This document shows, in pieces, positions 30,906-45,355 of a stretch of 64,000 bases of DNA. Source of the stretch: Nitrospirota bacterium (GTDB taxonomy: Bacteria > Nitrospirota > UBA9217); assembly GCA_963732675.1 (NCBI GenBank), contig CAVTAJ010000013.1, positions 98,137 to 162,136 on the forward strand, given 5' to 3'. A model generated the notes under the pieces. That model worked only from the letters and a program-made list of their open reading frames with translations, ran no database searches and had not been told where the DNA came from. The position numbers and the translations under genes were made by a program. Position 1 is the first letter of the stretch, and every line of letters begins with the position of its first letter.

Positions 30906-33806
30906 TTAAAACAACGACGGCATCCAGAGCGACACATAGACCTGGGACTCGCCTTTGTCGTCAAATCCGTGCGCATACACGATTCGGAACGTGATGGGGA
31001 GATAGTATGTCAGGTTCGTGTCGAGCCGGACCTCGGCGCCGGCAGATCGTTTGAATTCCCTGCTGCGGAATGCGTTGTCCCAGGCGTTGCCGGCTTCGGC
31101 AAAGACCGCGCCGTGGACGCGGCGTAAAAAGACGGGAGTGCTGCTCCAGCCCAATTCGATGTCCTTGATGGGGAAGCGGTATTCAAGGCTCGCGAGAGCG
31201 GCCTTTCTTCCCCGAAATTCATTGATCCGGTAGCCTCGCAAGTAGACCGACTCGTCATCAACCTGTAGTAACGTGTCACCAGGATTATCGCCGCCGACCT
31301 GGAACGCGCCCTGGGGCATCACATCCCCGGCCGAGTTCCCGGCAAAGGCCCGGACCTGAAGTACGTGGTGTTTCCAGGGAAAGTTGATGAACTCATGCCA
31401 GTCTGCGGTATACTTGGTGATGTCGAAATCGCTGCCGATCGATTTATCGTAACGTTTATACCCTACTTCTATGGTCCTGCCGTCCTCCGGGCTGATGGAA
31501 AAACCATACTTTTTCGCATTGTTGAAGAGATAAACGGCGCGGCCCGACGCCAGAGTGCCCTCGGCGGGAAGGGGACCGCGATAGCCGGGCCAGGGCGGGA
31601 GTTGGGTAAGCGCTGAAATTTCTTTCCTCCGATACCCGATGAGCAGGGCGTGCTGTTTCTGAAACTTGAGCAGGGGAAACAGGAGCGATGCATCAAGGGT
31701 CTTCTCACGCTGCACATAATCCTTTGACCCGGTCGCATCGATCAGCAGATCACTGAACGTCCTATCCACATCCGATGCCGCGACCCGGATGGTCGGGTAC
31801 AGCCCGTCATAGGCATAGTTGAACTCATACCACTTGCGGTACGTTTTGGGGCTGTAGAGGCCGGCCAATGCATAGGAGTGGCGTTCGACCGCGTCCTGGC
31901 CGAACGTCAGAAACCCGAAAAGGTCACGGCTTTCTTCACTAAACCCGTACCAGGGAATCCAGAAGCGCGGGACAAGCGTGGGGAGGGGATTGTATGAGCT
32001 CGTTTTCATTTCAACCGGTTTCTCGGCATAGGTGACCGCAGGATACCGGTCCTGGCAGGGTTCCGCCGATTTCCAGGATGCGGAGTCCGCAGGCCGCAGG
32101 TGAATATCGTACCCTGCGGAACTGTAAGACGAGAACACGAGCGTTTTCCCGTCCGGTGAGGGCGCAGGCGAGAACGCGCCGCCCAGTACGTTCGTTATCT
32201 GGTAGATCTTCTTTGTTGCGCGTTCATAGGCATAGAGGTTGAAGATGCCGGTACGGTCCGAGGAAAAGTAGATGATCTTGCCGTCGGGACTCCATGTTGC
32301 GTTTCCGTCGATCGCGCGATCGTGCATCAGTTCTTCGATCTTGTTTCCCCGTTCGTCGAGGACCTGGATATCTTTGTAGCCGCCCGGATGCGATAGGCCC
32401 GTAACGATCAGGGTCCCGTCCGGACTGTATCGCGGCGTTTCGTACTGGTCCGCGGTCTCTTCGGAAAGCCAGGTGACATCGGCTTCCCTGACTGCGTGGT
32501 TCTTTGCTGCAGCAATATCGAGCGAAGCGAGACGGTTCCTGCCGAGCTTGTTCACAACAAAGATGAGCTTCTTATTGTCCGGCGAAGGATAGGGGTCGCG
32601 GGCGCGGAGTCCATCCGTAATACGCATTTCCTTGTTCTTCTCGCAGGTCGTAGATAATAGATGTCATTGTAGATGTCCGTGTTCCTGATGACATCGATTT
32701 TTGTATAGTAAATACCGCTGCCGTCAGGGCTCCAGGCGATGCTTTCGCCCGAGGAGGTCGAGGAGGTCGTGTTCTCTACCAGCTTGCGGTCTCCGGTCCC
32801 GTCCGCGTTCATGATATAGATGGCGGGGAATTCATCCTCATTCGAAACAGCGTAGGCTATGCTTTTCCCATCAGGCGAGAAAACAGGAGAGTCGTTTACG
32901 AACCCTCGCCGGGTCAGGGCAAGCGAGGCCGTCAGGCCCTTTGCGCTCAATTCATCCCGTGTTTTTTCGTAGCGCGTTTTTAACTCCTTTTGCCATTCAT
33001 CCCAGAGGTCGCTGTACCATTGACCCAACGTCCATCGTCCATTCGCATCCACGAGCCATGGTATACCGTAGTAGCTGTAGCGCGTGGAAATGTTGGCGAG
33101 TTTTTCCCTGCCGTACTTATCAGCGATGAAGCGAGTGAAACCCTTCGCCGAAGAGGTACGGGACCTGACCCGAGGGCCAGAAGTCGGGGAATACCGTGGC
33201 CTGGGAGAGTCGCGGAAACTTGTCTTCGAGCACGGCCATGCGAATCACCATCTCGGAGCCGGGTGAACGGCCGCGGCCGCCGGAAGTCTGCTCCGTTTCT
33301 TCATAGGTGGCAAGGCCTTCGATCATCCAGATGGGCTCGAAGAGGTTCGGGAAATAGAGCCTGCCGAAGATATACTGGAGAAAATCGGGGACGCCGTGGA
33401 CCATGTCGAGATGCAGGATGTGCGTGTATTCGTGAGTGATGAGCGTTCTCATCCAGTCATCATAGGCCGTTGTTCCGAAACCCGGAGCGCCAATGGGCGG
33501 CGTGAGGTAAAGCGTAATATGGTTATAGGGAAACGGTGTGGTCAGGCCGTTCGTGGCATCTTGAGCATCGACAAGGACGATGTGCGTCCGGCCCTTCGGC
33601 TCCCACTTGATGCGCGGGACCAGCCGCACGTGCACGTCCTCGGCGATGACCGCGGTACGCTTCGCGATCTCCTCTTCACCCTGGTGATAGTGGATGGAAA
33701 AGTGCGGTGTCTCGAGCGTGGTCCAGGTGAAGGCCGGGTCGAATTTGGCGAATGCAGGCGAGGCGCTGAACAGGAAAGCCGAGAAGAGGAAAAGGATCTT
33801 TTTCAA
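30906..33806 (-). CDS. about 965-aa secreted/outer-membrane fusion of gluzincin-type metallopeptidase (HEYTH...E), PD40/TolB-like beta-propeller repeats and a C-terminal Omp85-type beta-barrel; two frame changes (about 33115 and 32620)
   Basis: Three collinear ORF-track pieces. First: signal peptide MKKILFLFSAFLFSASPAFA and ITHEYTHILHLD...EGLATYEE. Second: PD40-like SPDGKSIAY / WSPDGSGIYY / YSPDGTLIV / WSPDGKIIYF / PSPDGKTLVF. Third: a C-terminal barrel ending VYAHGFDDKGESQVYVSLWMPSLF. Confidence 0.75.
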
Positions 33807-35884: not shown

Positions 35885-38572
35885 TCACCGTGTTCTTCGT
35901 CTTTTGATCATTTTCTCGATCTCGACAGCAAAGAACACGACCGATGACAGGAGCAGAACGAACGCGAGTTCCACTGGCGTAAGCGGCTGGGTCTTGAAGA
36001 TGGGATTCAGGAAAGGGACATAGATGGTGGCCAGCTGAAGGACCAGCGTTGTAAAGACACTCAGAATGAGCGGCTTGTTCGTAAAGATCCCCTGGGAAAA
36101 AAGCGACTCTTTCTCGGAGCGGATAGCCATTACGTGGCCCAGCTGCGTGAGGCAGAGCACGGTGAAGACCATGGTCTGCCAGTGGGCGTCGCCGATATGG
36201 ATGGCCCATGCCTGGAGCGAGAGCGTGACCCCTCCCATGAGCAGGCCCACCCAGATAGCGTGGATGCCGAGTCCATGGGCAAAGAGGCTTTCCTGAGGCT
36301 TGCGCGGCGGCCGCTTCATCACGTCCCCTTCCTCCGGCTCCACGGACAGGGCCAGCGCCGGAAGGCCGTCGGTCACGAGGTTGATCCAGAGGATATGGAT
36401 CGGCAGGAGCGGGATCGGGAGGCCCAGAAAGGGCGCCAGGAAGAGGGTCCAGATCTCGCCGGAGTTCGTGGTGAGCAGGTACTTGATGAACTTGCGGATG
36501 TTGTCGTAGATCCTGCGGCCTTCCTTCACGGCCTTTACGATGGTGGCGAAGTTGTCGTCCAGCAGGATCATGGACGACGCCTGCTTGGCCACATCCGTAC
36601 CCGTGATGCCCATGGCCACACCGATGTCGGCGCGCTTGAGCGCCGGCGCGTCGTTCACCCCGTCGCCGGTCATGGCCACGAAGTGGCCCTTGTCCTGGAG
36701 CGCCTGGACGATCTTCAACTTCTGTTCCGGCGCTACCCGCGCGTACACGCGGATGGACTCGACGCGCTGTTCGAACGCCTCGAGCGAGAGGGCTTCGAGC
36801 TCAACACCGGTAATGATCGCCGCTGGGTCATCGTTCTCGAGGATGCCCACCCGTTTCGCGATGGTCCTCGCGGTCAGGGGATGGTCTCCGGTGATCATGA
36901 CCGGGATGATGCCGGCGCTCTTGCAAAGCGAGACGGACTCCGTTGCCTCTTCCCGCGGAGGGTCCATCATGCCCATGAGGCCGAGGAGGACCAGACCGGT
37001 CTCGGCGTTTTCAGAGGACAGGTCCGCCGGGACAGTGTCCCAGACCCGCATCCCGATGGCCAGGACCCGGAGCCCATCCGCGGCCATCTGGTCGCTGATC
37101 GATTGCATCTTCCGGACATCAATATCCTGTATCCCTCGTGATGTCAGGACGCTCGCTGAGCGTTCGAGCACAACCTCCACAGCTCCCTTGGTAAAGGAGA
37201 TATACGATCCGCTTATGACTGACCCCTGGCCCATGCCCCCTGACGCCGGCAGTCGATGAAACGTGGTCATGAGCTTTCGATCGGAATCAAAGGGGAGCTC
37301 CGCTGTGCGGGGATAGACGGCCTCCAGTTCCTGCTTTCTGAATCCATGGTCGCGTGCGGCAACAAAGAGCGCGGCTTCGGTGGGATCTCCGGTCACTTCT
37401 CCCGACGCGTCCTGGCGTGCATCAGTGGAGAGGGCCAGCGCGGTGAAGAACAAGGGTTCGGAGGGTCCAGGGTGCCAGGGCCCGGGTTTTCCTTCGCCTT
37501 CCTGAGCCCTGACCCCCGACCCCTGACCCCGCAATAACCTCCCGTCGCACCACATCTCCTCCACCGTCATTCTGTTCAGGGTGAGCGTTCCGGTCTTGTC
37601 CGTGCAGATGTAGGTGACCGATCCGAGCGTTTCGACAGCCGGAAGTTTGCGCACCAGGGCATTCCGTTTCACCATCTTGCGCGCGCCGAGGGCAAGGGCG
37701 ATGGTGACCACGGCGGGCAGGGCTTCGGGAATGGCGGCAACGGCGAGGCTTACGGCCACGAGGAACATCCTGACAGGCTCCTCTTCCCGCATCAGGCCTG
37801 CGACAAAAACGATGGCGCAGATGGCGAGCACGGCATAGGCGAGTTTTTTACCGAACGCAGCGAGCCGCTTCTGGAGCGGCGTCTTTCCCTCTTCCTCGCC
37901 CTGGATCATGGCCGCGATCCTGCCGAGCTCGGTGTCCATGCCCGTTGCCGTCACCATGCCGATGCCCCGGCCGTAGGTCACGATCGTGCCCTTGTAGAGC
38001 ATGTTCTTCCGGTCGCCGAGGGGAAGCGGCTCCTGCTCGAGCGTCTGCGGGTGTTTTTCCACAGGAAGCGATTCGCCCGTCAACGCGGCCTCTTCGATCC
38101 GGAGCCGGGCTGACTCGATGACCCGCATGTCCGCAGGCACGATCCTGCCGGCTTCAAGGACCACGATATCGCCGGGCACCAGCTCCGATGCCGCGATGGT
38201 CTGATGCCCGTTGTCGCGGAGGACGACGGCAAGAGAGGCCGCCATCTTCTTGAGCGCTTCCATGGCCTTCTCCGCGCGGTACTCCTGCGTGAACCCGAGC
38301 ACGGCGTTCAGGAGCACGATCACGACAATGGCCGCCGTATCAGCCGGCTCGCCGATGATCCCGGAGATCACTGCCGCCGCGATCAGGACCAGGATCATGA
38401 AGTCCTTGAACTGGTCAAGGAACATCATCACGGGTGTCTTCTTCTTTTTTTCGACAAGCTCATTGGGGCCGTGGGTTTCGAGGCGCGCCTGTGCCTCTTC
38501 CGAGGTCAGGCCCTGGAGGGAGGATCTCAGTTCAGCAAGTGTTTCTGCAACACTGCGTTGGTAGGGGTACAC
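35885..38572 (-). CDS. P2-type (Ca2+/Mg2+-like) cation-transporting P-type ATPase
   Basis: Intact 895-aa ORF. Motifs: [24 protein letters not shown] (a PEGL-type motif, not CPC), [19 protein letters not shown]. Confidence 0.9.
37453..37531. repeat. heptad-hairpin element, GGGTC/GACCC word type, embedded in frame in the ATPase gene
   Basis: + strand: AGGGTTCGGAGGGTCCAGGGTGCCAGGGCCCGGG...CTGAGCCCTGACCCCCGACCCCTGACCCCGC. It encodes [26 protein letters not shown] in the ATPase. Confidence 0.7.
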
Positions 38573-38791
38573 GCGTTTTTCTCCTCGCGCCTCTCGCGCA
38601 ATAGAGCAGGATGAACAGGTACGACAGAAGCGGACATACGGCGAAGCCCGCGGGCGCAGGAACTGCGCCCGTTTTCTTTGAACATATCATTAATTCCGCT
38701 GTATGTAAAGGCAGGCGAGGAGGTCCGGTCCAGGGATACAATAATTCATCGGGCAAACTGAAGAGAGGATCATCAAACCAGAAAGGAAGAT

Positions 38792-38834
38792 AAAAAATGA
38801 GGCAGCAGGATTACTATCTCCCCGGCTGCCTCAT
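38792..38834 (-). terminator. intrinsic terminator ending the Met-rich lipoprotein transcription unit
   Basis: ATGAGGCAGC / GCTGCCTCAT 10-bp stem, followed on the minus strand by a T run. Confidence 0.7.
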
Positions 38835-38969
38835 TTCATCTCTTTTATTTATTGTTGGAACAGAACACCCGCAGGCCTGACCATACCGTCAGCCGCTTCG
38901 TTCGGCGTCTTCCCATGGGTTGTCCCAGGCGCTGCTGTGCAGGTGTTGACTTCCCTCATCGGGCTGATT

Positions 38970-39071
38970 CTAAGTCTTTTTATTCTGCGGCTGATCTCCG
39001 CCACATAGATGCTCTCCATGCATCAAATGCGTTCCGCCGAACAACATCATCACAGCCATCATGACTACCAT
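38970..39071 (-). CDS. candidate 33-aa Met/His-rich membrane peptide, below the ORF-track size cut-off
   Basis: My reverse translation gives MVVMMAVMMLFGGTHLMHGEHLCGGDQPQNKKT. AGGGAGG lies 19 nt upstream, which is poor spacing. Confidence 0.25.
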   Translation of the reverse strand: MVVMMAVMMLFGGTHLMHGEHLCGGDQPQNKKT

Positions 39072-39119
39072 GATACCGATGACGACTTAGCCTCCCTGAT
39101 TGTTCACATAACCTCTCTC

Positions 39120-40858
39120 TTAAATGGTTCCGTTGGATGAGTTCAACTGGTTCATAAGCGTCTGCATGTCTGTCGCGGTCAGCCCTGATTTGTTCATTGT
39201 TGACCCCATGAACGTTGTCATCGCAGTGGCCAGCCCACTTGTTCCTGCCGTGGACTGCATCATGGTGCCGCCGCCCATCATGCCTCCACCCATGCCGCCC
39301 ATGGTGATAGACGTGCCGCCCATCATGCCGTTCATGATACCATCCGATGCGTCATTCATCATGGCCGTTATCAGCGCTGCGGGATCGGTCATGCTGTTTG
39401 TCTGGGCATACTGAGACATGGCGGCAATGCAAATGCCGTAGTTCTTCATGGCCGTCGTCTGTACCTCCGGATACTAATTCAGCCGCGTTCATCGGCATCG
39501 TCTGGAGGATGTCAGTGACCATGAAGTAATTGCCCACGGACGTGTTTGCCGCAGCGATGTTCGCGCCGGTCATGCCGCCTGCCATGTTGTTGGCCATGGC
39601 CTGGGCCATTGATGTAAGGGGTGTCATCTGAATGCCGGTGACCGTGCTTCCGCTTGAAATGTTCGGAATGACTGCGGTCATGATATCGCCGGACAACATG
39701 GTCATGGTCGTGCCGGTTGCCAGGTTCGTCATACGAGCCTCCGCTCATCTTGAGCATGACGGGACCGGAATAGGCGCCGAGGGACAGGCTGAAGCTGCCC
39801 ATGCTGTTCGTGGTCCCGCTGGCCAGCTGCGCACCCATGGCGCCGCCAGTCATTGAATATGCCATGACCGTGGAGTCGCTCATCGACCCGTTGAAGACCG
39901 ATCCGCTGACCATCCCGTTCATCATCGTTCCTCCTCCGCTCTGAATGGTGCCGGTCGCCGAGGAAGCTAAGTGGTTCATGAGTGTCTGCATGTCCGTCGC
40001 GGTTACGCCTGACTTATTCATGGTGGATGTGATGAACGTCGCCATTTCCGAGGCGAGCCCGCTTGTTCCCGCCGTTGTGGTCATCATGGAGCTGCCGGTC
40101 ATCATACCGCCCATCATGATCGGCGTACTTCCCATCAAGCCGTTCATGACCCCGTCCGACGCGTCGCTCATCATGGACGTGACCATGCTTGACGAGGAGG
40201 TCATTCCCATGTCCTTTGCGGACTGCGACATGGCGGCGATGGCCATCCCGTAGTTTTTCATGTCCTGGGTTGCCGTGCCGCTCGAACCTGACACCAGCGG
40301 GTTCATGGGCTGTGTATGCAGGATATCAGTGACCATGAAGTAATTGCCCACGGACGTGTTTGCCGCTGCGATGTTCGTGCCGGTCATGCCGCCTGCCATG
40401 TTGTTAGCCATGGTCTGGGCCATGGAGGTAAGCGGGGTCATTTGAATTCCCGTTATGGTACGTTCCGCTGTCACCGAGGGAATGACAAGCGGTCATCACG
40501 TCGCCGGGAGACATGGTCATGGTGGCTCCCGTTGCTTCATCTATATAGGATCCACCGCTCATCTGGAGCATGACAGGACCGGTGTAAGCGCCCATCGTCA
40601 TGCTGAAATTGCCCTGCGAGTCCGTTGTTCCACTGGCCACCTGAGTGCCCATGACTCCATTTGTGATGCCGTATGCCATTACCGTTGCTCCGCTTACCGG
40701 CCCTTTAACCGCTGTGCCGCTGATGGTTCCGCTATTTGTAGCAGGAGTTGTCCCGTTGTCGCTGCCGCCGCTCCCCCTCCGCAACCAGAAAGCAGCGACA
40801 TGGACCCGATCAAGAGCGTGAGAGCCAAAATTACGCGTAGATTTCTGTTTCTTTTCAC
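39120..40858 (-). pseudogene. about 580-aa extremely Met-rich lipoprotein made of two tandem units of about 285 aa; interrupted as sequenced by about 4 frame changes (about 40795, 40480, 39735 and 39452)
   Basis: GTG at 40858 follows AAGGAGG. VKRNRNLRVILALTLLIGSMSLLSGC is a lipobox. Four overlapping ORF-track fragments (40404..40910, 39512..40474, 39352..39732, 39120..39449) read through collinearly. Unit 1 (ISGTAVKGPVSGATVMAYGITNG...TGIQMTPLTSMAQTMANNMAGGMTG...MKNYGMAIAAMSQ...) is repeated as unit 2 (VSGSVFNGSMSDSTVMAYSMTGG...TGIQMTPLTSMAQAMANNMAGGMTG...MKNYGICIAAMSQ...). Confidence 0.75.
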
Positions 40859-40915
40859 TGTAAGCCTCCTTATTGATTTTGTACTGAGTACTTTTTTTCA
40901 CAATTAACAACCATT

Positions 40916-40941
40916 AGACGAGCGGAAAACAAAAAGGTTAC
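40916..40941 (-). promoter_or_regulatory. ECF-type promoter candidate GTAAC-N16-CGTCT upstream of the Met-rich lipoprotein gene
   Basis: The minus strand reads TTTGTAACCTTTTTGTTTTCCGCTCGTCTAATGG. The motif and spacing are the same as upstream of the ECF sigma gene. Confidence 0.55.
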
Positions 40942-41066
40942 AAAGAAAAAAATTGGTCCTTTAGTAGCAGGACGATATATAATGGCTATCCCTATGATGG
41001 TGCTATAATAATAACACAAAGCAAAGAACGCACTGCAATGACGTGTCTCGACAACAAGGAATAAAT

Positions 41067-41414
41067 ATGCGCAACCGCTCTATTATAAATATAATCGTCC
41101 TGCTCCTGCTCACCGGCTGCGCACCCAAGTCAACTGCTCCTGAGGTGTTGAGCAACGGGGTCCGCTTTTCGCTTTTCGCTCCCGCTGCTAAGAGCGTCGC
41201 CATCGCCGGCAGCTTTAACCAGTGGGATCCAGAGCAGGCCCACCTCACGGGTCCTGACAAGAAGGGCCTCTGGACCATTATTCTGCCGCTCTCCGCGGGC
41301 CGCCATGAGTACCGCTTTGTCATTAACAACAGTGAATGGGTCCTGGACCCGGCTGCTCCGTCAATAGATGACGGGCTCGAAGGGAAGAACTCCTTTGTCA
41401 TCGTTCCGCCATAA
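41067..41414 (+). CDS. lipoprotein with a CBM48 / AMPK-beta glycogen-binding-like (E-set) domain
   Basis: MRNRSIINIIVLLLLTGC lipobox. VRFSLFAPAAKSVAIAGSFNQWDPEQAHLTGPDKKGLWTIILPLSAGRHEYRFVINNSEWVLDP. Confidence 0.75.
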   Translation: MRNRSIINIIVLLLLTGCAPKSTAPEVLSNGVRFSLFAPAAKSVAIAGSFNQWDPEQAHLTGPDKKGLWTIILPLSAGRHEYRFVINNSEWVLDPAAPSIDDGLEGKNSFVIVPP

Positions 41415-41504
41415 GAAACCGCAGAAGAGGGTGCCCCGGAACAGAGGGAAGCCTCCCGAAGAATAGTCCCTATATGGTGGCGGCGAAGTCCGGCAAAAAA
41501 GAAT

Positions 41505-41530
41505 GTAACTTTTTTTCTTATCATTCGTCT
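41505..41530 (+). promoter_or_regulatory. ECF-type, probably autoregulated, promoter candidate GTAAC-N16-CGTCT upstream of the sigma factor gene
   Basis: GAATGTAACTTTTTTTCTTATCATTCGTCTTACG. The -10-like element lies only 13 nt before the annotated ATG, so the mRNA would be nearly leaderless. Confidence 0.5.
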
Positions 41531-41543
41531 TACGTGTATAAAT

Positions 41544-42107
41544 ATGAATATTGATCAGCAGTCCGGGGAAGCGGACATTATCCGGCAATGTCTCGATGGA
41601 GAGGCGGATTCCTATTCCGTCCTGGTGGACCGCTATAAAAAGATGGTTTACAACGTGGCCTACCGGATGCTTGGAGACGGTGATATTGCGAAGGATATTG
41701 CCCAGGAAAGCTTTATCGCCGCCTATGGGGGTCTTAAGACGTTCAAGCAGGACGCGAAATTTTCATCATGGCTCTACAGCATTGTCTTGAACAAGTGCCG
41801 GGACCATCTGCGGCTGACAAAAGAAAACATCCCGATCGACGATATTTCAGACATCAGGCCCGGCAGCGGTATTTCTCCGGAACAGGCCGCGGCGGACCAC
41901 CAGAGCAACGACCTGCTGCAACAGGCCTTGAATGCGCTCCCGGCGGAATACCGCGAGGTGCTCGTTCTGAAACACATCGAGGAGCTGGATTACCAGGAGA
42001 TCTCGGCGATCACGGGGGCCAGCGTGTCGGCGCTCAAGGTCAGGGCGCATCGGGGGCGTGAGATGCTGAAAAAGATACTGGAAAAATCAGGAGTGACCCA
42101 TGGATAG
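41544..42107 (+). CDS. ECF-subfamily RNA polymerase sigma-70 factor
   Basis: Region 2: YSVLVDRYKKMVYNVAYRMLGDGDIAKDIAQESFIAAY...FSSWLYSIVLNKCRDHLR. Region 4: LPAEYREVLVLKHIEELDYQEISAITGASVSALKVRAHRGREML. Confidence 0.9.
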   Translation: MNIDQQSGEADIIRQCLDGEADSYSVLVDRYKKMVYNVAYRMLGDGDIAKDIAQESFIAAYGGLKTFKQDAKFSSWLYSIVLNKCRDHLRLTKENIPIDDISDIRPGSGISPEQAAADHQSNDLLQQALNALPAEYREVLVLKHIEELDYQEISAITGASVSALKVRAHRGREMLKKILEKSGVTHG

Positions 42108-42753
42108 AGAACGGGAGATCATACATAAGATCCTTGATGGCGATGCGGAGGAGGAAGAACAAAAGGTCCTTTCGCGGGGCATGGAGGCCGATACCAGGCT
42201 GAAGGAGGAATTCACCGGCCTCATGAACGCGGTCCGATTGCTCAAGGAGAGCGAACGGCACGAGGCGCCGTTTTCTTTTACCGCCGAGGTGATGAAGAAA
42301 CTTCCGCGAAGATCGCCGTCCGTGCTCAGCCGTTTCAGGGAATTCCTGTTTGGCAGCCGGGTGCTGCGCTGGAACATGGCGTCGGTGCTGGCAACGGCGG
42401 TTATCGTACTGGTCATGGTCGTGACTGTTTCCCGGATGCATCGCGAGCAAACCGGGACGATCGCAAGCAGTTCATCGGGCCAGGATGAGACCGCGGTCTC
42501 GGTCCGGTTGACCTTTCACTCTCCCCAGGCGCAGCGTGTGGCGGTAGCCGGCGATTTCAATAAGTGGAAGACCGATGCCCATGAGATGAAAAAGAGCAAT
42601 GGTATCTGGAGCATCGATCTGAAACTGAAGCCCGGCATCTATTCCTATAGCTTCGTCGTTGACGGTAAATCATGGGTCCCTGATCCCGGCGCTGAAGTAT
42701 TTCAAGATGACGGTTTCGGTTCACGGAACGCCGTCCTGAAGGTGGACATATGA
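42100..42753 (+). CDS. single-pass anti-sigma factor candidate with an extracytoplasmic CBM48-like domain
   Basis: Overlaps the sigma gene by 8 nt. TM segment: MASVLATAVIVLVMVVTV. C-terminal domain: VRLTFHSPQAQRVAVAGDFNKWKTDAHEMKKSNGIWSIDLKLKPGIYSYSFVVDGKSWVPDP. Confidence 0.7.
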   Translation: MDREREIIHKILDGDAEEEEQKVLSRGMEADTRLKEEFTGLMNAVRLLKESERHEAPFSFTAEVMKKLPRRSPSVLSRFREFLFGSRVLRWNMASVLATAVIVLVMVVTVSRMHREQTGTIASSSSGQDETAVSVRLTFHSPQAQRVAVAGDFNKWKTDAHEMKKSNGIWSIDLKLKPGIYSYSFVVDGKSWVPDPGAEVFQDDGFGSRNAVLKVDI

Positions 42754-43634
42754 AAAGGACGAATAGCATGCTAAGGTTTGCGGGCAGGGTACTGCTCCTG
42801 TTGCTTCTGGTCCCGTTGTCAGGGACGTTTGCGGCTGAGAACCGGCATCTTGACAATATCCGCAGTGTCCTGGAAGCATCAACAATCCCGCGAACGGAGC
42901 AGGCTGAAGTGAATACCAGGGCGGCTGCCGCCATGAACGCCGGGGTGCCGGGAGAGGACGTGGAGATCATCGTTTCGCGGGCAGTGGGCCGTGGAGCAGA
43001 CGCCGGAGCGATCAACCGGTTCCTCGATACGGGCCTGTCGGCGAAAAAAGAGGGACTGCCCGTTCGTCCTGTGCTGGACAGGATAGAGCAGGGACTGTCG
43101 AAGGGCGTTCCGACCGAGCGGATCGTTGCAGCTTCCCGGAGGCTTGCGGAGAAAATTGCAACAGCGCAGCCTCTTGTCGATGCGCTCATCCGCGACGGCA
43201 TGACACCCCGGCGGGGCAATGAACGCGAAGCGGCGATCGCATCAGCTGCCCGCGCGCTCGAGAAATCCATGAACGCTCAAGATGTCGGGGCTATGGGCGC
43301 TGCAGTCCGGAACAAGCGGGGATCGCTGTTGCTCTTTACCAGCGCCATGGACACGGCAACCTATTTTGCCGCAAGCGGCATGTCTCCGAAGACTGCGTCG
43401 CGCCTTGTCCGGGATGCCGTGCAAAAGGGCTCTTCCGAACACGACCTGGGCGCCATGGTACGTCGGATGGATGATGAGATGAAACACGGGACCAGCGCGG
43501 AGGATGTTGCGGCGAAAATGGAGCGCGGAAACATGCAGGGAGAGCGGGGCATGGAACGTCAGGAAATGCGCCAGGAGATGAATACCGACCATGGAAAGGG
43601 ATCAGGTTCCGGTATGGGCGGGCACGGGATGTGA
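42750..43634 (+). CDS. secreted helical-repeat protein with a Met/His/Gly-rich tail; function unknown
   Basis: ATGA start/stop overlap with the anti-sigma gene. Signal peptide MLRFAGRVLLLLLLVPLSGTFA. Tail: ...MQGERGMERQEMRQEMNTDHGKGSGSGMGGHGM. Confidence 0.65.
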   Translation: MKRTNSMLRFAGRVLLLLLLVPLSGTFAAENRHLDNIRSVLEASTIPRTEQAEVNTRAAAAMNAGVPGEDVEIIVSRAVGRGADAGAINRFLDTGLSAKKEGLPVRPVLDRIEQGLSKGVPTERIVAASRRLAEKIATAQPLVDALIRDGMTPRRGNEREAAIASAARALEKSMNAQDVGAMGAAVRNKRGSLLLFTSAMDTATYFAASGMSPKTASRLVRDAVQKGSSEHDLGAMVRRMDDEMKHGTSAEDVAAKMERGNMQGERGMERQEMRQEMNTDHGKGSGSGMGGHGM

Positions 43635-43728: not shown

Positions 43729-44292
43729 ATGAAACGGTCCTTATACATGATCATCAGTGTGTTCGTGCTGTTGCTCACCATGCTGGGTGCGGTATGGGCG
43801 GCAGAATCGAAGGAAGAGCAGAGTCTCCAGAAGGAAGCCGCTGCGATCAACACCACGGCAGGCAACGCGCAGGGCGAAAAGGTCGTGATCCAGAGGCTGG
43901 AAAAAGATTTCAACGTAAGCAACGACCGGATCCAGGGCCTGCGGGACCAGAAACTGGGATACGGAGAGATCGCCATCACCCTGTCTCTTTGTCAGAAGAT
44001 GCCAGGCGGCATCACGGACGCCAATATTCATCAGGTCATGACCATGCGCCAGGGACCGCCAACCATGGGCTGGGGCGATATCGCAAAAAAGCTCGGGACC
44101 AAGCTGGGTCCTGCAATTTCCCAGGTCAGGAACGTCAACAGGGAAACGAACAGAGAGATGAAGCACGAGGCCAAAGGCGATAAGGAGCACATGGAGAAAC
44201 ATCAGGAACAGCATGAAGAAATGCACAGGGAGTCCATGGGCCATGAGAGCATGGGCGGTGGCCAGGGTGCGTCCCATGGCAAAGACAAATAA
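43729..44292 (+). CDS. secreted protein with a His/Met/Glu-rich tail; function unknown
   Basis: RBS AGGAGG. Signal peptide MKRSLYMIISVFVLLLTMLGAVWA. Tail: EMKHEAKGDKEHMEKHQEQHEEMHRESMGHESMGGGQGASHGKDK. Confidence 0.65.
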   Translation: MKRSLYMIISVFVLLLTMLGAVWAAESKEEQSLQKEAAAINTTAGNAQGEKVVIQRLEKDFNVSNDRIQGLRDQKLGYGEIAITLSLCQKMPGGITDANIHQVMTMRQGPPTMGWGDIAKKLGTKLGPAISQVRNVNRETNREMKHEAKGDKEHMEKHQEQHEEMHRESMGHESMGGGQGASHGKDK

Positions 44293-44430
44293 GTTAAAAT
44301 CGGGAGCATGTTCCATTTAAAACGAAGGGCTGTCTTCATTCTGTTCGGACAATGCTTTGTTCAGGAAAGAGGAAGATAGTCCTTCGTTTGTATCTATGCG
44401 GTGACTCAATGTGAAGAAGGAGCTGCTATT

Positions 44431-45355
44431 GTGAAGAGAGAACAGGACCGACCCGAAGCGCGTAAGAGATATTTTTCACCTGCATTACTCCTCATTGGTT
44501 TGATCCTCTGCTTTTTTGTATTTCCCGGAAACGTCTTTGCCGGCCTTATCCTCGACGCGGAGCTGCGGCTCCAGTATGAGGACAACGTAGTCGGCCTTCT
44601 CTCGGACCAGCAGAAGGGCGGTGTCAGTACCGGGGCAGGAATAGCCGGCAGCACGGCCATGCAGGCCAGCAGCATGGGGGGTATGGGAGGCGGAAAGAGC
44701 AATTATACCGGATCAAGTTCGGGCTCCTCCCAGTCTCCGGGAGATTTTTCAGCGACCCTTTATGCCGAGGCCGGAGGATACCAGGATGTGGGCAGGGATG
44801 CGGAAGTATTCGCGAAAGGCTTTGCCTCACATACCTCCTACGACACCTACACGGACCTGAATTCGAACATCGGAGGCGTCAGCACCGGCATTTCTGTAAT
44901 TCTCAGTGACCTCCTCTCCACCCGCATGTCGGTCCTCGGAAAGATCAAGCGTTTTGACGACAGCCAGCGCGAACAGCACCGCCTACGCAGGGAACCTCAG
45001 CCTGAAGGAAAAGCTCACACCCTCGTTCTGGCTTCGGGAGTTCGGCCAGTATGAAAAGAACAGCGCAGATACATCTGTTTTCAGTTATACCGGCACGACC
45101 ATCGGCATCGATGCGGGCTATGCATTCACGACGAAGACCCGCGCAACACTCGGCTACAGCTATCTCGTCCAGAAGTATGACGAACCTTCCGGCGCCGAGA
45201 TGAAGACGCAGACCGCTTACGTGAGCGCTGAACAGACAGTGAGGAAGAACTGGGCTGTTTCCGGGGAGTACGATCTCCAGCTAAGCAAGGAGAACGTGAC
45301 CGGGACGAGCGCGACGAACAACATCTTCTCGCTGGCGCTGCGGTACAGTTATTAA
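44431..45355 (+). CDS. outer-membrane beta-barrel protein with a Met/Gly-rich loop; one frame change near 44970
   Basis: GTG at 44431 follows GAAGGAG. Signal peptide ...LLLIGLILCFFVFPGNVFA. Loop: AGSTAMQASSMGGMGGGKSNY. The barrel has alternating beta-strand periodicity and the terminal signature NNIFSLALRYSY. Confidence 0.65.

Follow-up and report, generated by a model that had tools for sequence, protein, structure and literature searches.

A methionine-rich, two-unit lipoprotein beside an ECF sigma operon in a Nitrospirota bacterium: a possible envelope Cu(I)/Ag(I)-binding protein

What does a secreted protein do with nearly eighty methionines? The question is raised by a 64,000-nucleotide stretch of a Nitrospirota bacterium (contig CAVTAJ010000013.1, positions 98,137 to 162,136; "the window" below means this whole stretch), on the minus strand of which overlapping open reading frames (ORFs) between 40858 and 39120 encode pieces of an unusually methionine (Met)-rich lipoprotein. 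We therefore asked whether these pieces form one gene read in its true frame, whether the product is folded, where its Met residues come from and what they might serve. The answer that we favour, with a probability of about one half, is that the protein is an envelope Cu(I)/Ag(I)-binding protein, anchored by lipid and induced by an extracytoplasmic function (ECF) sigma factor. The gene, its fragments and its most disturbed region are as follows.

39120..40858, minus strand: Met-rich lipoprotein gene, 578 aa after indel correction, present in the assembly as five overlapping ORF fragments
40694..40858, 40404..40910, 39512..40474, 39352..39732 and 39120..39449, minus strand: the five ORF fragments of the lipoprotein gene
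40461..40485, minus strand: cluster of three indels (surplus T at 40485, missing G at 40473/40472, surplus G at 40461), from comparison with L001

Taken in succession, the fragments give a single protein, with four net frame changes between 40858 and 39120. Indels were called against L001, a 94.7%-identical short-read contig in which the gene is intact; its product (P0002, 578 aa) is 95% identical to the window protein across 100% of the length. More than 800 homologues exist, many of them intact at 574-584 aa. Six single-base indels separate the window copy from L001: in addition to the cluster listed above, a G is missing at 40772/40771 and a surplus G is found at 39730 and at 39459. Once these are removed, the lipoprotein frame runs without an in-frame stop. 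Substitutions relative to L001 fall 13/9/46 at codon positions 1/2/3 and the 60 changed codons result in only 18 amino-acid changes, a signature of purifying selection. Because intact homologues exist and the substitutions are biased to the third position, the Met-rich frame is taken to be the translated one; by this comparison, 40858..39120 is one real gene and the Met-rich frame its coding frame. A first reading of the locus, made from sequence only, had likewise seen one gene interrupted by frameshifts, and had allowed that another continuous and conserved frame, poor in Met, might turn out to be the translated one. No such frame emerged: the alternative frames were rejected, and the His/Arg-rich read-through frame described below has stops and is not the conserved frame.

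The frame breaks themselves are most likely errors of the assembly consensus rather than gene decay, because the signature of purifying selection is accompanied by breaks in three other window genes. To place the indels in context, about 19 kb outside the lipoprotein gene were compared with L011, a syntenic contig of a Nitrospirota metagenome-assembled genome (MAG) at 92% identity. Single-base insertions (G, T and G) near 44971, ~46490 and ~30400 break genes for an outer-membrane beta-barrel, a 296-aa protein and a 311-aa protein, and the window assembly appears generally indel-prone. This corresponds to ~0.16 indels per kb (3 in ~19 kb), and the six indels in the 1.74 kb of the lipoprotein gene are about 20 times denser. 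Such a density would suit another explanation, namely that the window copy is a true pseudogene whose six indels are real mutations in a gene being lost from the strain, as would the position of several indels outside homopolymers and the single frameshift in L011's own copy. We nonetheless consider gene loss improbable: not only do the codon-position bias, the small number of altered amino acids and the absence of in-frame stops speak against it, but the Met count is maintained (77 vs 75 in the comparison with L001), the promoter and ribosome-binding site are intact, and the insertions in the three other genes are isolated events of the same kind. In addition, the relatives derive from long-read MAG projects, and internal repeats and paralogues could have degraded the consensus. 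One product of the breaks deserves a caution. Beyond the frameshift at 39730, ORF 39512..40474 continues (39512..39735, minus strand) as a His/Arg-rich stretch (HDHDHVVRRYHDRSHSEHFKRKHGHRHSDD..., …HDHDHVVRRYHDRSHSEHFKRKHGHRH…), because Met codons preceded by C (C-ATG) are there read as CAT; this stretch could pass for a His-rich metal-binding tail and is a by-product of the frameshift.

The corrected protein is divided as follows.

40781..40858, minus strand: signal peptide and lipobox LLSGC (MKRNRNLRVILALTLLIGSMSLLSG followed by the Cys), read from the sequence, with predicted lipidation at Cys26
39920..40730, minus strand: unit 1, a transthyretin/CarboxypepD_reg-like sandwich, then a Met-rich six-helix domain with a Gly/Met loop
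39123..39919, minus strand: unit 2, with the architecture of unit 1; contains GGMGGGMMGGGTMMQ

The N-terminus (MKRNRNLRVILALTLLIGSMSLLSGC) is a signal peptide ending in a lipobox of the bacterial pattern [LVI][ASTVI][GAS]C, and C26 is invariant in 74 homologues. Among the 578 residues are 78 Met (13.5%, or ~1 in 7.4), compared with 0.8-3.7% Met in the other window proteins; there are also 86 Gly, 81 Thr, 70 Ser and 57 Ala, no Trp, 2 His and 2 Cys, one of which is the lipobox Cys, and 6% of residues are charged. Unit 1 spans residues ~44-313 and unit 2 residues 314-578; their identity is 67% at the protein level and 74% at the DNA level, rising to 90-93% in one 120-nt stretch of DNA, and they have 30 of the 38 Met positions per unit in common. 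The sequence-only reading had thus rightly described a tandem two-unit lipoprotein nearly devoid of Cys and His, and its count of 19 Met in the 109 residues of the last fragment (ORF 39120..39449, with 1 Cys and no His, including ITMGGMGGGMMGGGTMMQ) was reproduced. Its frequency of one Met in six residues, however, is that of the last fragment and not of the whole protein, and its units of 285 aa measure ~265 aa. Nor is the duplication relatively recent, as had been proposed: in comparisons with 79 other two-unit proteins, unit 1 shares 73-94% identity with their unit 1 but only 56-67% with their unit 2, and the same like-to-like pattern holds for unit 2. Since like units match better than unlike ones, the duplication is old and preceded the divergence of all two-unit homologues examined. 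Homologues with three units (~840 aa) and with one (~300 aa) also exist.

We then asked whether the Met-rich segment is folded. When AlphaFold2 was first given the two-unit P0002 and 74 close homologues, the predicted local distance difference test score (pLDDT) was 49, with 25-50 in the helical part and confidence in the sandwiches alone, a result that might be misread as disorder. That interpretation was discarded when the single-unit Met-rich homologue P0131 was modelled with a diverse alignment including Met-poor homologues: pLDDT rose to 91.2, with a predicted template modelling score (pTM) of 0.84, and the model has nine strands in the sandwich and six helices, with lower confidence in the Gly/Met loop. 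Because this model is confident, the Met-rich segment is predicted to be a folded domain, and the sandwich-then-helical architecture first guessed from sequence agrees with the AlphaFold models. In a Foldseek search of the PDB with P0131, the sandwich matched transthyretin and HIU hydrolase (probability 0.9-1.0) and CarboxypepD_reg-like folds, and the helical domain matched nothing. A PDB sequence search with the family profile returned nothing relevant, and Pfam and NCBIfam scans of the corrected protein yielded only sub-threshold beta-sandwich matches and one spurious NikL match. The CarboxypepD_reg/transthyretin-like assignment (PF13620/PF13715 or a prealbumin-like fold) therefore comes from the fold and from homologues, for several of which PF13620 is precomputed, the window protein itself being sub-threshold (E 0.03-0.06).

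The origin of the Met residues becomes apparent from the wider family. An exhaustive profile search for the unit retrieved 3322 cluster representatives at E<=1e-3, 180 of them at E<=1e-30, and both window units match this sandwich-plus-six-helix lipoprotein module across their whole ~265 aa. The helical part of the module has no Pfam entry. Most representatives are lipoproteins in which the unit is an N-terminal module, often followed by PASTA, Ig-like, fn3, PKD or hexapeptide domains. Met content is bimodal: among 129 full-length units, 101 have <=4% Met (median 1.5%), none has 4-6% and 24 have 6-13%. The composition is indeed far outside that of ordinary lipoproteins, its own Met-poor homologues included, as the sequence-only reading had it for lipoproteins at large. 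When 277 units of the Met-rich clade are aligned, Met makes up at least 80% of the residues in 22 columns and 40-80% in a further 11. At 31 Met-dominant columns, Met-poor homologues carry L/I/V/F in 54% of cases against a background of 25%, the remaining residues being mostly Lys, Thr, Gly or Ala, and this pattern is present in both the sandwich and the helices. MxxxM spacings are enriched (18 observed vs 10.3 expected, P=0.006), and many Met lie in i/i+4 stripes along the helices. Given the bimodal Met content, the fixed Met columns and the presence of L/I/V/F at those columns in Met-poor relatives, the Met-rich clade is a derived, position-specific Met version of an ordinary fold, to which Gly/Met loops were added.

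Two short motifs, TPLT and D-x-S/N-D-G-x-x-D/N-G, are common to the Met-rich and Met-poor clades. The latter is invariant or nearly so in both (P0002 residues 232-240, DASDGVMNG; ~40166..40140 in the window, with an equivalent in unit 2) and looks like a Ca2+-binding or tight-turn loop. The family is found in Nitrospirota, Anaeromyxobacter, Syntrophales and proteobacterial MAGs, and its members are annotated at source as "hypothetical protein" or "Carboxypeptidase regulatory-like domain-containing protein" (A. oryzae WP_248358051.1 / AMOR_04760). Literature searches retrieved no paper on the Met-rich lipoprotein family or on CBM48-type anti-sigma factors, and no curated family covers it. In one MAG (MFD01299.bin.1.129, contigs L003 and L009), at least two lipoprotein paralogues, 76% and 62% identical to the query, each have an ECF promoter.

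Malleable hydrophobic grooves lined by Met occur in the SRP54 M domain and in calmodulin. The lipoprotein might similarly be a flexible hydrophobic surface or structural protein of the envelope, with a Met groove for lipids, quinones or hydrophobic peptides, or with whatever role, possibly in anchoring, its Met-poor relatives have. The substitution of Met for L/I/V/F at hydrophobic positions would fit such a role, as would the place of the Met-poor homologues at the N-terminus of large surface proteins and the retention of the D-x-S/N-D-G-x-x-D/N-G motif in both clades. However, the C-terminal surface domains are absent from Met-rich members, and the proposal leaves unexplained the bimodality of Met content, the Gly/Met loops, and the copA/cus neighbourhood and Met/His tails described below. 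It is the functional reading that explains least, and we regard it as decidedly improbable.

How the gene is controlled was addressed next, through the region upstream of it and the divergent operon.

40913..40944, minus strand: ECF-type promoter TTTGTAACCTTTTTGTTTTCCGCTCGTCTAAT before the lipoprotein gene, its 3' end ~55 nt upstream of the start codon
41043..41414, plus strand: small, divergently oriented lipoprotein that carries a CBM48/AMPK1_CBM (E-set) domain and is paralogous to the sensor domain of the anti-sigma factor; conserved beside the gene in L001 and L011
41504..41532, plus strand: ECF promoter motif TGTAACTTTTTTTCTTATCATTCGTCTTA with one mismatch (variant TGTAACT...TCGTCTTA), immediately before the sigma gene
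41544..42107, plus strand: ECF sigma factor (Sigma70_r2 and r4_2), the closest models being SigW-like, below family cut-offs
42100..42753, plus strand: anti-sigma factor with an N-terminal anti-sigma region, one transmembrane segment and an extracytoplasmic CBM48/AMPK1_CBM domain
42750..43634, plus strand: secreted protein (294 aa) from the sigma operon, ending in a Met/His/Gly tail (...MNTDHGKGSGSGMGGHGM); no Pfam family
43729..44292, plus strand: secreted protein (187 aa) from the sigma operon; its tail is rich in His and Met (...EHMEKHQEQHEEMHRESMGHESMGG...); no Pfam family
44401..45355, plus strand: probable outer-membrane beta-barrel of the sigma operon, ending ...SLALRYSY, broken by the extra G near 44971

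The lipoprotein promoter, TTTGTAACCTTTT-N10-TCGTCTAAT, is a classical ECF-type -35/-10 pair, and even the loose form of the pattern is expected by chance only 0.29 times in the window. In 12 non-redundant loci its general form, TGTAACCTTTT-N10/11-TCGTCTAAT, stands ahead of the orthologous gene; four of these loci (L022, L025, L009 and L010) have no sigma gene within 10 kb. In the window, the sigma and anti-sigma genes overlap. That the sigma gene's own upstream region bears the motif suggests autoregulation, and the exact motif stands before the ECF sigma gene in L002, L005 and L016. The lipoprotein gene has this same motif at a suitable distance from its start codon, as a member of the regulon would, and because the motif is shared, the gene is probably switched on together with the sigma operon by an envelope signal. 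A scan of 38400..41600 for sigma-70 promoters and terminators gave nothing above chance.

Other genes with this promoter were also noted. The same ECF promoter precedes ~170-aa secreted proteins (Tyr/Trp/Pro-rich, ending RGHGMGMGRGMGM) at L002 8799..9299 and L026 12037..12570, which are probably further members of the regulon. A metagenome motif scan found at least 120 loci; among the matches listed, 35 have an ECF sigma gene and 20 have the lipoprotein. Also among the matches listed (L027-L146), the motif stands in many contigs before an 86-aa AhpD-like protein (CIPC…CCG) and a ~250-aa multi-pass membrane protein, often near more distant ECF sigma genes, which suggests that a wider ECF group uses this promoter. 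Since the motif also precedes unrelated genes in other lineages, the scan did not yield a clean regulon.

The tails of the secreted proteins at 42750..43634 and 43729..44292 resemble the copper-binding repeats of CopA/CopB/PcoB-type proteins. Beside the lipoprotein gene in other genomes, copper/silver export genes recur in the following loci.

L025, L022 and L019 (Nitrospirota): CopA-type ATPase directly upstream, with an HMBD/YHS N-terminus and a CPC motif
L049 and L065 (metagenome): CopA upstream; in L065, copA, lipoprotein, sigma and anti-sigma genes are colinear, with two promoter copies
L149 (proteobacterial MAG, 68% GC): cusC, cusB fused to CusF, cusA and DUF411, then the gene; CopD downstream and a cupredoxin upstream
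L014 (Anaeromyxobacter terrae): cusB, cusA, the gene, then a His-rich CPH CopB-type ATPase
L021 (Deltaproteobacteria MAG): cusCBA-like cluster, then a one-unit member

The CopA-type gene of L025 scores 603 bits against TIGR01511 (cut-off 397), and the pumps of L149 and L014 carry AIGAMVDAAI(V/I)MIENAHK, which we take to be the CusA-type signature of the fourth transmembrane segment (TM4). Adjacency to cop/cus genes thus occurs in four independent arrangements, in four lineages and in 6 of 23 non-redundant genome loci, plus the two metagenome loci. By chance, a rough estimate from typical genomes would predict under one locus. Co-regulated or neighbouring secreted proteins end in Met/His/Gly tails (e.g. 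RGHGMGMGRGMGM, MDHGTGMDHGSGM). No universal partner gene was found by neighbour clustering of 20 loci. Of the three kinds of neighbour that the sequence-only reading had named, an ECF sigma gene is adjacent and shares the promoter, cop/cus genes lie beside several relatives, and msrPQ was not found: neither Msr families (Oxidored_molyb, Ferric_reduct, PMSR, SelR) nor msrP/Q or msrA/B motifs appear in ~25 loci or the window.

Two further observations concern the surroundings. A MamS_MamX-domain gene (L002 1..396) lies ~10 kb from the lipoprotein gene of a Nitrospirota MAG. In the window, the overlapping ORFs 30906..32627 and 32552..33052 (minus strand) both have PD40 repeats, the longer one also an Omp85-like domain; they may be a single gene, and no indel at their junction is seen relative to L011.

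The cop/cus neighbourhood in relatives and the Met/His tails on co-regulated proteins are indirect evidence for the Cu(I)/Ag(I)-binding reading stated at the outset. According to this model, an envelope signal would turn on the ECF sigma operon and the lipoprotein gene together. In the periplasm or at the cell surface, the lipoprotein would act as a high-capacity binder or buffer of Cu(I), possibly also of Ag(I), using thioethers only, and would hold the metal or hand it over beside CopA-type ATPases and CusCBA pumps, with the co-regulated Met/His-tailed secreted proteins working alongside. Met-only Cu(I) buffering would suit anoxic habitats, where copper is Cu(I).

Several points weigh against this reading. 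Searches by sequence and by fold (Pfam, NCBIfam, PDB sequence, Foldseek) match the protein to no known copper protein. About two thirds of the conserved Met positions are ancestrally hydrophobic and probably buried, and such Met might be available to metal only if the domain opens or contains a Met-lined cavity. CBM48-like domains, to which the sensor of the anti-sigma factor belongs, are not known to sense metals. Copper genes adjoin only 6 of the 23 genome loci, and in the window itself the neighbours are a PMR1/SERCA-type (Ca-type) P2 ATPase and TerC, with no cop/cus gene; a Yip1-domain protein is also present, and these neighbours are uninformative about copper. The indel density of the gene, discussed above, counts here as well. 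Finally, copper stress itself oxidises periplasmic Met (PMC9302797), and so a copper context is compatible with an antioxidant role too.

Such a role is the main rival to copper binding. The lipoprotein would be a sacrificial oxidant sink, ECF-induced like the secreted Met-rich protein MrpX, in which HOCl, H2O2 or other oxidants at the envelope turn Met into Met sulfoxide, with possible re-reduction by a periplasmic Msr enzyme encoded elsewhere in the genome. A secreted Met-rich protein under an ECF sigma/anti-sigma pair follows the logic of MrpX (PMC4436054) and of a Brucella system (PMC8315932), and the oxidation of periplasmic Met under copper stress is in keeping with it. Also in its favour, the gene directly downstream of the lipoprotein gene in L022 (12029..12463) encodes a secreted protein of 145 aa, 24% of them Met, which has numerous charged residues and a few His as well (…MMGAQQSQQMMGNQMMSQDMMRDMAGMMRQMNDMMGKM…); this protein resembles MrpX or SilE and has no family match. 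Yet the absence of msr genes and motifs from the loci surveyed runs counter to this role. Moreover, the lipoprotein is predicted to be folded (pLDDT 91), has 6% charged residues and contains 22 columns of >=80% Met, whereas MrpX is unfolded, 44% charged and unconserved (PMC4436054). Most of the conserved Met occupy ancestral core positions, which are poor sites for a scavenger, and the co-regulated proteins pair Met with His, a metal ligand and not an antioxidant. We hold the oxidant sink to be unlikely; since copper stress and Met oxidation are linked (PMC9302797), it could nonetheless coexist with copper binding.

A bolder form of the Cu(I)/Ag(I)-binding reading can be put forward tentatively, and we regard it as doubtful: the Met-rich clade might be a new kind of extracytoplasmic copper store, in which wholesale replacement of Leu/Ile/Val by Met turned the hydrophobic interior of an ordinary lipoprotein domain into a thioether-lined cage holding several Cu(I)/Ag(I) ions per unit, a Met counterpart to the Csp bundles with their Cys lining. 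Anaerobes would have doubled or tripled the unit and brought it under an ECF sigma factor of its own.

Two functions are known for secreted Met-rich proteins, the buffering of Cu(I)/Ag(I) and the trapping of oxidants, and every characterised example is short, disordered or single-site. The present family is large, crosses phyla and is named in the sources only as "hypothetical" or by a generic domain label. It offers a folded two-domain module in which hydrophobic positions have been systematically turned into Met, together with homologues of normal composition as a built-in comparison. Should Cu(I) binding prove true, the family would bring a new component to the way in which copper is dealt with in anoxic soils and sediments, and would provide an instance from nature of a fold able to tolerate, or to use, a methionine core. 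The copper hypothesis is directly testable, since the cultured Anaeromyxobacter oryzae and A. terrae carry homologues, and the conserved ECF promoter provides a route to defining the regulon.

How does the lipoprotein compare with known systems? True homologues are the Met-poor members of the family (e.g. P0151, P0211 and P0229), detected with E values down to 1e-61, which have the same predicted fold, the lipobox, and the TPLT and D-x-S/N-D-G motifs. They differ in having 0-4% Met, with L/I/V/F where the clade has Met, and no Gly/Met loop; they often continue into PASTA, Ig-like, fn3 or PKD domains, and are likewise uncharacterised. MrpX of Azospira suillum, in the SigF/NrsF regulon (PMC4436054), is alike in being secreted, very Met-rich and expressed from an ECF-sigma promoter beside sigma/anti-sigma genes. 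It is, however, small, natively unfolded and unconserved, with 20% Met and 44% charged residues, and is co-operonic with yedYZ (msrPQ). The window lipoprotein, in contrast, has 578 aa, of which 6% are charged, is predicted to be folded and lipid-anchored, has fixed Met positions and no msr gene nearby, and its anti-sigma factor is CBM48-like and not NrsF. The regulatory logic is therefore analogous only, and size, charge, predicted fold, conserved Met columns, lack of msrPQ and the type of anti-sigma factor together rule out an MrpX-type peptide.

The SilE/PcoE "sponges" (PMC5008109) are also periplasmic and Met-rich, lie beside Cu/Ag efflux systems and are thought to buffer Ag(I)/Cu(I). They differ in being ~140 aa long and intrinsically disordered and in using His as well as Met; the scarcity of His (2 among 578 residues), the confidently predicted fold and the lack of any sequence similarity or family match exclude the lipoprotein from this group.

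Thioether ligation is the typical mode of extracytoplasmic Cu(I)/Ag(I) binding, as in CusF, the CusB N-terminus, the CusA Met triad, CopC/PcoC and the Mets motifs of Ctr1. MxM and MxxxM spacings recur in the lipoprotein, whose gene lies in relatives beside cusCBA, with CusF fused to CusB. Met-only and Met-dominated Cu(I) sites have been reviewed (PMC7558416, PMC3847284). CusF/CopC-type proteins nevertheless have OB or cupredoxin-like folds with one or two defined sites, as opposed to ~38 Met per unit here, and are not homologous. Csp1/Csp3 (PMC5171941) present a helical domain with a sulfur ligand residue at inward positions and provide a possible analogy for the storage of several Cu(I) ions. 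Their ligands are Cys thiolates in a four-helix bundle with demonstrated Cu(I) binding, while the lipoprotein has Met in a predicted six helices plus a sandwich, with no homology between the two. Membership of the CusF, CopC and Csp families (PF11604, CopC, DUF326-type four-helix bundle) was rejected, as no match was obtained in Pfam/NCBIfam, in PDB sequences or, for the helical domain, in Foldseek.

Met-rich inserts or tails also occur in the oxidases CueO and PcoA/CopA. Segments of this sort are resembled by the tails of Met, His and Gly in the co-regulated proteins (HGMGMGRGMGM, MDHGTGMDHGSGM), which are also like the disordered region of PcoB (PMC12509749) and motifs of CopI (PMC13308877). 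In copper proteins, such Met-rich segments are accessory parts of enzymes or porins, and the lipoprotein itself is without His motifs. A member of none of these families, it would by analogy be functionally closest to the Met-rich periplasmic Cu/Ag buffers, that is SilE/PcoE and the CusF/CopC-type sites, and conceivably to the Csp proteins.

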